64,000 nucleotides of DNA, from the NCBI GenBank assembly GCA_964016885.1, contig OZ024746.1, positions 36,518,001 through 36,582,000 on the forward strand, written 5' to 3'. Every line of letters starts with the position of its first letter. Positions within the stretch are counted from its first letter, which is position 1. Of this stretch, positions 13,537 to 58,600 are shown piece after piece. The translations under genes and the position numbers were made by a program. The notes under the pieces are model-generated. The model was given only the letters and a program-made list of their open reading frames with translations, had not been told where the DNA came from and searched no databases. Origin of the DNA: Eledone cirrhosa (taxonomy: Eukaryota).

Positions 13537-14445
13537 TTATACATTCTCTTCTACATTGTATATATTACGTGCATTCCGTTTTTTCTTTTGTACACAAATG
13601 GATTTCAAATTTTCGCGGAAATGCTTACTCACTATGAAATACAAAATAAAATTAATACTGTGATTAATAAGAGCTAGTGTGCCCAACACAACAGAAAGTA
13701 CATCAATAATGGTTTCGTCTTCAAAAGTAATTTTCAATGTATATATTGTCACAGGGAATGTTGTTAGCAGAAAGACAACATTTATAGTTATTACAAGGTA
13801 AATTGTTATACGGGTTTGTTTCTCAATATTGGGCTGAAAATGTTCACCTAGATTTGGTCTGTTATGCAATTTATATATCATAATGATAGAGCTCGTAATT
13901 AAAAAGATTGCTGGTATGAATGAATACATAATAAATGAAACCCGGAATACATTTGCAATATGTTCTATTGTGTAACCTATTATGGTGTATGCTATAATAT
14001 CACAAAGAAAAATAATGCACAATAATATGTATGGAATATATTTTCTTCGACGATAACGTTGCGAAAATGGACAAAATACTACGCATAGTCTTTCTAAAGA
14101 AATAGCGACAGTAATCCATGAGGAATTTGTAGGAAATATTAGAGTGATGATGTTATATATTCGACATTTTAGAAAAGGAACTTCTATTTGATAAGCAACC
14201 GCTAGAAATTGTGTACAATTCACCCATATTGTAATTAAATCTGTAAAAAGAAGACATAGAAGATATGGTGCGATATTGGTCTGACGCATTGGTTTCAGAC
14301 AAAATGTTAAAATGGTTATTATATTTCCGATAGTACCAAAGCATATTTCAATTATGCAACCATACCGTATGAAATGTATCATCAGATTATTTGTCTGATT
14401 TAATATCTGACTTCCATTGTCCATTGTATTGTAGCTATCCATCAT
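13537..14445 (-). CDS. Class A 7TM GPCR with single-exon CDS (FMRFamide/peptide-receptor-like, candidate chemoreceptor), paralog 1
   Basis: Seven hydrophobic segments with GTIGN (TM1), D in TM2, SSWITVAISLERL (TM3), YSFIP (TM5), FLLTTFP (TM6), NHSINFILY (TM7), SKHFRE (helix 8) and N-terminal NxS/T sequons. Start set at the first ATG of the 13537..14460 ORF. Confidence 0.92.
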   Translation of the reverse strand: MMDSYNTMDNGSQILNQTNNLMIHFIRYGCIIEICFGTIGNIITILTFCLKPMRQTNIAPYLLCLLFTDLITIWVNCTQFLAVAYQIEVPFLKCRIYNIITLIFPTNSSWITVAISLERLCVVFCPFSQRYRRRKYIPYILLCIIFLCDIIAYTIIGYTIEHIANVFRVSFIMYSFIPAIFLITSSIIMIYKLHNRPNLGEHFQPNIEKQTRITIYLVITINVVFLLTTFPVTIYTLKITFEDETIIDVLSVVLGTLALINHSINFILYFIVSKHFRENLKSICVQKKKRNARNIYNVEENV

Positions 14446-15884
14446 GAGATATGTCAACAAATCCTTTGCAAAGTATCAAATTAATAAATATGCGCACAGC
14501 TAATATGAATCAATGTTGTATTTCAGCATGATAGTCCTGGAAACACCCAGTGTACCGGTCATTTAAGTCAAACTTTCTTTCTCTCCCTTTATACACACAT
14601 ATATATATATACACTTGATATCGAGAGACAACATGTAATATAAGAAAGTTCTTGGATTGAAATTGAACGTGATGATATTTTAAAATTATCTGTTTGTAAA
14701 TATTGTTAAGATGCTTACCATAATATAATGAGCAAATCAAAATTTATTTTAGTCTTTCGTAAACATTACTACTTCGACAAAACGAACTCTTCTCAGAGAC
14801 GAAATGTATCACTTTGTGTTTGACGTAACTTTCAATATTCTGAGTTAAGGTTTATGTATATATCAGAAGAAAATGATATCCAAAATTCTGTATTTACGAC
14901 AACCTTATATATGACTCGGGCTGCTACATATAATAACGATATTTACTGAAACAGCTATGCAAATTATTTCTGTAAAATTCATTATCAATGAGGTCATGCA
15001 GGTAAATTGTTAATCAATAGATATTAATGAAAAATATCACTGGATTGGTGGAATACATTTCTATCATATTACACGAAACCACGGTTACTATTATAACCGT
15101 TATGCATTGTACATTTAAGATATTTACCGTACACATTGTCATGAACGCATCAAATGAAATTCCGGATGAATTCTGAAGTTGTTAGACTATTTTTCTTAAA
15201 TAATATGCGTTGACATTCGTGCTAACATTTAAAGGCCGGAGCAGTGGCAGAAGTCCAAATTAACACACCAGAATAAAAACAAAGACAATGAATTACAGAA
15301 ATATTACTGAAACATGCGTCCCAGTAGATAACAAAATCCATAAACAAAGCCTCATAAATCTCATAAATATTTACTAGTACCCAGCATACTTTTGCCGCAC
15401 TTTTAGGTAAACGTTTAGTTTCAAACATGTAGTTGAAATAAAATGCCTTAATTTCATGACCATTGTGTAACATTGTTATTTCCACGTAAAAGATGATACC
15501 TTGACACACAAAGATTGACTTGTTAAATTCTAAGATTGACTTGTATCAATGAGAAAATTGCATATTTTTGGACCGAATATTACATGAGATCAACTATTCG
15601 AATTTTACATGAGAGCAACTACTACTCAAGTACAATCTGTATATATAAAGATAGGGGTAGATGAGGAGAAAGAGGCATACATAGAGAGATAATTGTTTAC
15701 TTAGGAAGCATTGGGAATATTTGAATCGGGCGTGTCTCGACACAAATGACCATGATCATATCTAAGAACACTGAGCAAAATACCCCAGTAGACGGTAAAC
15801 AATGGCACTGTATAAAAATATATATAGTATAACAATAATACATATATATATATATATATATATATATATATATATTGTTATACT

Positions 15885-55654: not shown

Positions 55655-58600
55655 CGTTTATATATGTACAATATATCACGTATAATTCACGTCTATAGAT
55701 GATAAATTTAACTGAATCTCGATAGATTATTTTTGTGCTAAACTTATTAGTTTCAGGGCTACTGGTAAGATATCCACTTTGATATTTCATGTATAGTGGT
55801 GATGTAATTAATGTTGAGGAAGTGTTTCCTCACGTTTCATGTTCATTATTCAAATATGATCAGGTGATTTTACTAATTTCATTTAAATAACCGCCAATAC
55901 ATTGATAACTAATGTTTATGTATTGTGTTATTGTTTCGAGCTATGAAAATGAAAACCAATCTCTTGTAACGTTAATAATTATTATTTTTCATTACGCATT
56001 AGTTATTCTTCTCATGATTTCTAATGCAACACCGACTCGAGGCAACTCATGACTTGTAGAACTAGCTCTATATGAATGATATAATATCAACAGATTAGTA
56101 GCATTATCGAAGGTTTCATTACCATTAGAGCGGCTGCTAATGACGAAACTGCGAATGATGATGATGTTGTCATTGGTGTTTTTAAGCATTGATTTGAATT
56201 AACAATATCAATCACTGTTGCATTATCTTACCTGATATACAACATTTACCGTAGTAGTTTGACGTTTGTTAAATAGCTTTCCAAATATTAGATTGAATAA
56301 ATGTTTACATAATCTAGAACGCCTAAAAGGTATGTTAGACAATTTCATATTTTGTTGATGTTCTTGGTGTCGTATATATTGCAGTCTTTGAGGTTGTTAA
56401 TATCAGTTTTTTTTCTGGCCCTGCCTTGTTGTTGCTGTTCTTCTTCCCTTCCGCTTCATCTAACTTGGTGTTTATTTTCTATTTGAGTGATATACCCTTA
56501 CTTAAGGGTAGATCGTATGAACTCAGTACCTTCAATACTTATCAGAATCGTCTAATGTTAATGTATTATCATCGATTGTAGTTCGGCATCAGAGCAAATA
56601 CATGTCTACTGATTTGAAGCCCTAAAGCTTTTTTAATTGGTAAATGGATTTCAAATCCTTAACCAAATATAATAATGGCATATGTTCATTGCATTTCGCT
56701 TATACCGGCGTGAGTACTTACCGAGTGAGCAAAGAGAACAAATAAAATGCATGACTGATGCTAATTCATCATGTTCGAAATATTATCGGGAAAACTCTTT
56801 ATTTACACCTGAATATATATATATTGGTTGGCTCAATAACCAGATCAGTGTTTATATAGTGCCAAAGCGCTTTCGTCACAAATTATGTGACCTCCTCAGT
56901 AACTGATTTCTTATTTCGTGTGCCTACTTTGTTCTGCCCTACAGTATCTTCTTTTTGTGCGTTTTCAATATATAACCATTAAATAAACAACCATCCGGTT
57001 ATTGAAACAACTAACCGGAAATTTATAATAAATTGAAGTAAAAACCAATAGTTCCGTGTGTTTTAGTTGGCAGCATGACACTCCCAAATATAAATATAAA
57101 GTTTGCATTTGTTAGAAAAACAAGTGTATATGGTAGATAGGTTTGCACATGCATTTAAAATATATATAATCATTTGTCACTCAACATGTGCTTACAGATA
57201 TTAAATGTGTCTTAAAAGTCATTATTGCCAACTGTTTATCAAATAGAGCTGTGTGTAATATGGTATTATATCGTTTGTCATAAACACAACTACTGTTAAG
57301 ATTTATATAATCATTTACGTTGTTGAAAAGCAAGCGATGTTTATCTATATGCAACATGGCTTCCATTCTTTTCTAACCTATGTCCACTCAGACAGAAGGC
57401 GCTATAAATCACTAATATTCGTATCACTGGCAATTAAAACTTTTACCCATCAGACAATTTGTTTCAGACTTGACGAAAGTCTATAAATCTGTAATGCTTG
57501 TGAATTGTCATGTTAAGTAGTTCCAAGATGTCCAAGCATTGCCGATAATATTTCTATCAAGTTGTATATCATCATTGTATAGACTGTCATTGGTCTTTTT
57601 CTTCGTTCTACCAGCCCAGATTTAATGTTTGGTAGCACCCGTCATCCCCCAGCAAAAGAAAACAAAGAATATTTGTTTTACCACCTTGATGCTTGAGGTA
57701 CAGATTATTTTATTTAGATATACTAATGGTTATGATGTAGATGGATGTTATCGTTACCCCAAGGAGATGTGCATGTTCTTATGGCGAGTACGAAAATGAA
57801 TTAAATTATATTACTCTCTCCAGACATAGACTGAAACAGTTAAGATGTTGGAAGTAGGCTTCAGGCTTTCAACTCTTTATACTGAAGCCAGTAGTCTGTT
57901 TCAAGCGATATATAATTGGGACACTATAATACATAATTATAGGTACGTCCATTATGAAACACGGACGAAAGTACTAGATGATCCTCCCCTTCATAAGTGC
58001 GCTTATTTATAACATAAACGTTGTTCCGTTTCCTTACTATTTTTTAATAACCGAAATTCAGAGAAAGCTGTTGAAAATCTACATATTTGCTTGTAGAAAA
58101 TGAAGGAAAACCTAAAAACGTAAATCAGTGCCTAAATCCATTCTCATCATAATTGCATCAGAACGAGTTCAATGTTTCATAAATTCGAGCGAAATTTCCA
58201 GAAATTGCAAGAAGAATGATAATAAATCGTTTCAACTTGAAATCGGCAAAACAAGGGTTTACTGGCCCGCCCCAACAAGTCATATAATTCCACAATTTCA
58301 TTGAAACGTTATATAATTAAAGTCTAGAAAAATACTCACACCACAATTCTTCATTACTTTCCTTTATGCATATATGTATATATATATATATATATATATA
58401 TATATATATATATATATATATATATATATATATATATATAGAGAGAGAGAGAGAGAGAGAGAGAGAGAGAGAGAGACAGAGACAGAGATGGAAGGGAGAG
58501 AGAGTGAGATATTGGTATATGATCGTGAAAAATATGGAAGTTATATCCACCATTAGTAGCAACCTCTGTCGAAAGGGCGAGTTTAGTTTAGAATTATTTT

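Follow-up and report, generated by a model that had tools for sequence, protein, structure and literature searches.

A tandem array of class A receptors that lack the second extracellular loop in Eledone cirrhosa, candidate chemoreceptors of an octopod

We analyzed a 64,000-nucleotide stretch of the 3.0-Gb genome of Eledone cirrhosa, here called the window (contig OZ024746.1; G000:C6:36518001-36582000). It holds four intact single-exon genes for G protein-coupled receptors (GPCRs) of class A with 291–305 amino acids, g1 to g4, plus one broken copy and a lone upstream module (the orphan module). What distinguishes their family is a derived, almost total loss of extracellular loop 2 (ECL2) combined with positive selection on the outer face, and not the absence of a disulfide. 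From sequence features, we lean towards reading the cluster as candidate chemoreceptors for external molecules.

The four genes differ at helix position 3.25, the site of the cysteine that bridges the third transmembrane helix (TM3) to ECL2 in most class A receptors. g1 (13537-14445, minus strand; 302 amino acids from the first Met) has C at this position and an ECL2 without cysteine. g2 (19463-20380, plus strand; 305 amino acids) has S and is inverted relative to the other copies. g3 (52356-53231, minus strand; 291 amino acids) and g4 (54776-55654, minus strand; 292 amino acids) both have T. Pairwise identity among g1–g4 is 43–47%, and 68% for g3 and g4, which are tandem duplicates (52106-53777 and 54507-56236, 74% identical). 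g1 is one of five young copies of about 94% DNA identity, the other four being upstream of the window. Sequence comparison and the profile scan also identified a broken g3-like copy (48403-48845, minus strand) with two TGA codons, one TAG and a frameshift; it stops near residue 163, with nothing past the TM4–TM5 turn. A previous sequence-only reading had placed four intact paralogs, a pseudogene and an orphan module in these positions and had listed C, S, T and T at 3.25; frames, lesions, module similarity and residues bear it out.

Matches to the Pfam model 7tm_1 range from E 3e-10 to 3e-6 (g1, 40.5 bits; g3, 33.7 bits), two of the four above the curated cut-off. The Srw model (PF10324) is above its cut-off in three of the four, with weak matches confined to the C-terminal third (120 positions) of the model. 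Predicted models superpose on class A receptors with TM-scores of 0.70–0.75 (Z 27.1, root mean square deviation 2.9 over 261 residues). The helix anchors N1.50, D2.50, ERL at 3.49–3.51 (R3.50), P5.50, P6.50 and Y7.53 are kept; W4.50, W6.48 (by T) and P7.50 are replaced in the family. By 7tm_1 match, fold and helix anchors, the family belongs to class A (rhodopsin-like). Among solved structures, human GPR139 scores highest against the family profile (E 9e-25), 1.5 bits over the ghrelin receptor (E 3e-24). GPR20, the top PDB match of a single sequence, is absent from the best 60 profile rows and was rejected as kin; that match is likely the product of a gap-free alignment over the short loop. 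Fold searches single out no family, returning generic class A receptors at tied scores and, in the ESM Atlas, generic 7tm_1 clusters only.

We measured the spacing from R3.50 to P5.50 across 193 proteins (41 from this genome and 152 foreign), of which 187 were retained after five were dropped for length and one for a gap. The spacing is 59 residues in all four window genes and 58–62 in 23 of 23 rows of the clade that contains them, hereafter the loopless clade. Among the 164 relatives outside it, the median is 80 and only three rows have 62 or fewer. C3.25 is present in 4 of the 23 loopless rows, and none of the 23 combines it with a loop cysteine, counted in a fixed window that can take in helix ends. 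The 23 sister rows have spacings of 63–116 and both cysteines in 20 cases. Farther away on the tree, 121 rows show a median spacing of 80, and 117 of them carry both cysteines. Srw/FMRFamide-receptor-type genes of this genome have spacings of 78–107 and lack C3.25 throughout (0 of 20).

AlphaFold models of two genes give the same picture of this region. In g4 (mean pLDDT 68.6), helices at residues 131–152 and 156–188 are separated by a 3-residue TM4–TM5 turn, and in g1 (mean pLDDT 82.6; 83–88 at the turn) helices at 137–159 and 163–195 are likewise 3 residues apart. TM4 and TM5 are predicted to be joined by this hairpin, which would leave the binding site without a lid. The earlier claim that ECL2 is nearly absent therefore holds, while its loop of about 10 residues shrinks to three in the models; its further claim that no TM3–ECL2 disulfide can form agrees with both models and with the lack of paired cysteines in the clade. 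The short loop is no assembly artefact, because 16 foreign sequences share it; we also rejected the idea that ECL2 is encoded by an overlooked exon, given continuous frames and the same spacing in those proteins. The 58–62 spacing and the core motifs persist in sequences that are just 32–49% identical. In four foreign members (P0002, P0004, P0006 and P0008), an N-terminal and an ECL3 cysteine co-occur, a pair absent from the window's genes that may form a replacement bridge.

The loopless clade is monophyletic, with support of 100 in FastTree (101 rows) and 95/99 by the Shimodaira–Hasegawa-like approximate likelihood ratio test (SH-aLRT) in IQ-TREE (59 rows), and it is nested in a 97–98% clade of bridge-keeping receptors. 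Because it is nested among receptors of which 20 of 23 keep both cysteines, loop and bridge are placed as lost on the stem of the loopless clade. Within the clade, where other members carry S, D, N, T or Y at this site, the g1 group has C3.25 but no loop partner for it, which fits regain or retention alike. Further lineages also combine short TM4–TM5 spacing with absence of C3.25, namely P0040/P0069/P0123 (62) and L014/P0090 (63); because these shortened independently, the loop was lost more than once in this receptor branch.

Single-copy sister genes serve as an internal control for the divergence of the family. These pair closely with a foreign orthologue (e.g., L015 with P0026 of Octopus bimaculoides; tips 0.07–0.13), unlike the loopless genes, which are 0.5–0.8 from any foreign relative. 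In line with the lineage-specific family that the sequence-only reading had proposed, neither FastTree nor IQ-TREE shows a one-to-one orthologue among the sampled sequences, in which other cephalopods are thinly represented; the named relatives of the array genes come from O. bimaculoides. The same reading had traced molluscan and nematode expansions of this kind to FMRFamide/peptide-receptor-like GPCRs; in the trees, the family nests not with the Srw/FMRFamide-receptor-type genes but in a neighbouring disulfide-bearing branch. It has a weak PF10324 match confined to the C-terminal part of the model, and like Srw/FMRFamide-receptor-type genes it mostly lacks C3.25. Those genes match PF10324 at E 4e-39 to 1e-6, mostly over the whole model, have the longer spacing given above, and form a separate clade in this genome (the trees hold no nematode Srw rows).

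When 264 kb in and around the window were scanned with the family profile, 12 copies came to light over 170 kb (G000:C6:36.403-36.574 Mb), seven intact and five broken. Seven of them had been missed by the sequence-only reading, whose inference of a lineage-specific birth-and-death array is otherwise upheld: they lie 13–115 kb upstream of the window (G000:C6:36403307-36504542), three intact and g1-like and four broken. Of the broken copies, one has a frameshift with a stop, two that are identical have a single TGA apiece, one has an insertion in TM4, and the one in the window is truncated. The TM4 insertion, in a g1-like copy (G000:C6:36462152-36462237), is 90 bases long with a duplicated target site, and 86 of its bases match a repeat of about 190 bases scattered through the window. 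At G000:C6:36411945-36451893, two segments are duplicated in tandem, one spanning 10.9 kb (98.1%) and the other 7.8 kb (99.4%); either they were duplicated very recently or the assembly repeats them falsely. Since one intact and one broken gene lie in these segments, the safe count is 10–12 copies, 6–7 of them intact.

No close copy outside the array emerged when the genome was searched three times with protein queries, and these counts are lower bounds; 60 kb at 36.328–36.388 Mb lies outside the array scan. A tblastn match at window positions 51998-52069 was rejected as a further copy, being weak (E 0.22) and attributable to chance. Two very divergent intact relatives, L019 (G000:C6:36213207-36214106) and L020 (G000:C6:36262223-36263110), keep C3.25 and a loop cysteine with spacings of 66–67, and are possibly older members of the same array, 140–190 kb further upstream. 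On a small contig (G000:C1113), L017 and L018 are near-identical GPCR copies 8 kb apart with a normal loop and cysteines.

Next, we examined selection on the two halves of the receptor. Codon models were run with purpose-written scripts, not PAML, and the outer partition (g4 residues 66–100, 143–167 and 225–251) was set by helix numbering before counting. In a trio of young copies, the partitioned model gives a ratio of nonsynonymous to synonymous rates (dN/dS) of 2.88 for the outer and 0.37 for the inner partition (p = 7e-4 against outer = 1). Adding a broken fourth copy gives an outer dN/dS of 2.4–2.6 (p = 0.0007–0.0016 over three topologies), and inner dN/dS is 0.21–0.37 at all depths. In the four intact young copies, amino acids vary in 36 of 87 outer columns and 11 of 169 inner columns. 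Divergence of the upstream flanks (0.031–0.061) matches dS (0.039–0.061), so the synonymous rate is not unusually low. Gene conversion from a divergent donor is also unlikely because there are few outer synonymous differences (1.5–4 of about 60 sites). The youngest copies are thus under positive selection on the outer face while the cytoplasmic half is constrained. Inner-face constraint had been claimed earlier on the basis of shared motifs, and it stands, although two of those motifs do not: g2 departs from HxRPxLG, and both g1 and g4 depart from NxxNFILY.

These results bear directly on whether the array is just a set of decaying redundant copies, with outer variability reflecting relaxed constraint and not function. 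Nearly half of the copies (5 of 12) are broken, deeper comparisons give an outer dN/dS near 1, and all four coding differences from the assembly seen in g4 change an amino acid, one at the conserved N7.49 (single contigs, possibly errors). The partition test contradicts decay, however, with low inner dN/dS at every depth and outer values above 1 in the young copies, as does the retention of spacing and core motifs at 32–49% identity. We regard this explanation as very improbable.

The candidate-chemoreceptor reading builds on four features: the array, the loop deletion in every member, its derived state, and the outer-face change in the youngest copies. On this reading, a tandem birth-and-death set of single-exon class A GPCRs that has shed nearly all of ECL2 and the TM3–ECL2 disulfide of its closest relatives would sense external molecules. 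By analogy with the mammalian MRGPRX receptors, ligands would bind in a shallow, solvent-open outer vestibule. Activation may bypass the classical toggle, given T for W at 6.48 and no P7.50; all copies would couple to one common G protein through the conserved inner face, and each duplication would retune the ligand range. In Aplysia, chemosensory organs express clustered single-exon GPCRs (PMC2700072), which counts for the chemoreceptor reading. The Aplysia genes AcCRa-c (Cummins et al. 2009, PMC2700072) resemble the array in being clustered, mostly single-exon, rhodopsin-like and without close orthologues; expression in rhinophore and tentacle has been demonstrated for them, and the likeness to our array is one of gene layout.

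MRGPRX receptors are our working analogue, as they too have no TM3–ECL2 bridge and have W6.48 replaced (PMC10286997). In MRGPRX1, where both the bridge and W6.48 have been lost, this accompanies a shallow, wide-open pocket and a broad ligand range (PMC10286997). Unlike our family, MRGPRX receptors have a replacement TM4–TM5 disulfide (C4.64–C5.32; PMC10286997); no conserved cysteine pair was seen at the outer ends of TM4 and TM5 in the family alignment. Furthermore, MRGPRX receptors are not among the best 60 rows of the structure search with the family profile, so no close sequence kinship appears there.

Several observations weigh against a chemosensory role. Outer dN/dS is only about 1.0–1.1, not above 1, for g3/g4 and for a set of six genes, and unpartitioned site models, underpowered on three sequences, are weak (M2a against M1a, p = 0.13; M8 against M8a, p = 0.041). 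The outer half does diversify, as the sequence-only reading had supposed, but not with the supposed focus on the ligand pocket: at what we take to be the classical pocket positions, variable sites are not enriched within the outer half (14 of 32 against 22 of 55, p = 0.82). The repertoire of seven intact genes is small, and two of these may be one gene falsely duplicated. Expanded class A GPCRs are few in cephalopods, which have other known chemoreceptors (PMC11886862), and for the other class A expansions of cephalopods, expression is found chiefly in testes, in gills or in mixed tissues (PMC6408891). Finally, a 3–4-residue ECL2 without a bridge also occurs in MC4R, an endogenous peptide receptor (PMC7460885).

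Some of these points fit a different role: the same lidless receptors would work in immune, barrier or reproductive cells, much like MRGPRX2 or gamete-recognition proteins, and detect internal or microbial ligands that evolve fast, with the outer face selected through an arms race. Selection spanning the entire outer half, beyond the pocket positions, would be in keeping with this. MRGPRX2 is a mast-cell receptor (PMC10771525), cephalopod class A expansion groups 1 and 2 are gill-biased and testis-biased, respectively, in C. minor (PMC6408891), and in Lymnaea both reproductive glands and ectoderm express expanded FMRFamide-like receptors (PMC11589774). However, these expression data concern other families, and the four O. 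bimaculoides accessions we have from the clade or its sisters are absent from the available tables of PMC6408891. The gene layout also resembles that of published molluscan chemoreceptor candidates (PMC2700072). We consider an immune or reproductive role the main rival and a serious possibility, albeit one with less than an even chance.

Receptors for an endogenous peptide or metabolite, with extra copies splitting one role, must also be weighed, as in the melanocortin receptors or GPR139. MC4R is the closest architectural match, with an ECL2 of 3–4 residues and no C3.25–ECL2 bridge, a bridge found in about 88% of class A receptors; it binds peptide and calcium, and human GPR139 is also bridge-less (PMC7460885). 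Unlike our family, in which P5.50 is invariant, melanocortin receptors are conserved endogenous peptide receptors without P5.50, and the likeness is convergence, not kinship. GPR139 leads the solved structures matched by the family profile, but it barely exceeds the ghrelin receptor, and its spacing of 69 (from the alignment) and 15-residue ECL2 (bioRxiv 2025.04.18.647407) set it apart. Because sister clades here keep both cysteines, the GPR139 and loopless-family losses are independent. An endogenous ligand also sits poorly with paralogs that differ in 30–57% of residues, mostly on the outside, with outer dN/dS above 1 in young copies, with five of 12 copies broken, and with the lack of a conserved orthologue. 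We therefore find this explanation improbable.

How does the candidate chemoreceptor family compare with expansions already described? Nath et al. 2025 (PMC11886862) report, for 238 lophotrochozoan genomes including those of cephalopods, tandem expansions of class A GPCRs as candidate chemoreceptors without the TM3–ECL2 bridge, with 10–51 such genes in octopus genomes. Like these, the array is tandem, lacks one-to-one orthologues, has variable outer halves and pseudogenes, and has no TM3–ECL2 disulfide. The missing disulfide, which had been put forward as unusual, is thus ordinary in lophotrochozoan expanded GPCRs, and all 20 Srw/FMRFamide-receptor-type genes of this genome lack C3.25 as well. 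Two differences stand out. Their ECL2 typically has 25–30 residues (not a selection criterion), against the predicted 3-residue turn here, and the nearest relatives of our family retain the two cysteines, which allows the loss to be assigned to a single branch. The octopus sets of that study may already include the loopless family, a comparison made by description only.

Ritschard et al. 2019 (PMC6408891) describe two cephalopod class A expansion groups. None of the four O. bimaculoides accessions is in its available tables, where other members could appear under other accessions; 60 of its 93 PF00001 rows, all at E 5e-16 or better, score far above the loopless family. An O. bimaculoides tandem cluster in that paper, Scaffold18646, has similar spacing and two genes expressed in skin or sucker. 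We rejected it as the same family: its complete 7tm_1 matches span 244–249 residues at E 1e-16 to 1e-26, whereas those of the window genes span 230 at E 1e-6 to 1e-10. We found no report of a loopless octopus GPCR family in the literature, in a search made without most subscription journals.

Additional features of the window concern gene structure. Upstream modules of g3 (53695-53775, minus strand) and g4 (56155-56278, minus strand), recognized by DNA similarity, carry splice-donor-like sites at 53766-53775 and 56225-56234, and are the probable end of a non-coding first exon. The orphan module (35105-35230, minus strand; splice-donor-like site 35176-35185) is 82% identical to the g4 module over 125 bp and 80% identical to the g3 module over 81 bp, and the splice-donor-like 10-mer on the minus strand is identical in all three. 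No coding sequence lies behind the orphan module and the profile scan found no coding piece nearby; it is likely a remnant of a lost receptor copy.

Short-read contigs from one sample, which may be from the same source as the assembly, span g4 at 54852-56700 without indels or joints. Three contig sets over g4 look like genomic DNA and contain no splice joint, and a run of restriction site-associated DNA sequencing (RAD-seq) had 0 reads on g4. The four coding differences mentioned above come from one sample's contigs and are at window positions 54882, 55165, 55203 and 55240; three are around the TM4–TM5 turn, all from a single contig, and are possibly errors.

The window also holds non-LTR (long terminal repeat) retroelement remains at 28314-29882, 36461-39900 and 43259-45815. 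They comprise a reverse transcriptase frame, an element with endonuclease and reverse transcriptase that is divided between two frames, and another copy of that element's 3′ part at 77% identity. Further open frames at 2701-4427, 16766-17776 and 40773-42594 presumably are mobile-element remains as well, which they resemble. Four such open frames were scanned against Pfam and gave no match at E 0.001.

GPCR-based chemosensation is uncharacterized in cephalopods, and their expanded GPCRs are reportedly few (PMC11886862). The loopless family offers a short, concrete list of seven intact candidate genes, including a young trio that differ almost solely on the outer face and are suited to ligand screens and swap experiments. 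It also provides a graded natural series of ECL2 loss, from a spacing of about 80, to 63–70 with the bridge, to 58–62 without it, plus the independent losses. Because the family's Pfam scores are weak, our data suggest that threshold-based surveys can miss such genes. A broader proposal, which we offer tentatively and do not expect to hold in full, is that these are octopods' own uncatalogued lidless GPCR chemosensors. They would have arisen by ECL2 deletion from a disulfide-bearing ancestor, convergently with mammalian MRGPRs and melanocortin receptors, and would still be retuned by positive selection, forming a GPCR arm beside the ion-channel chemotactile receptors.

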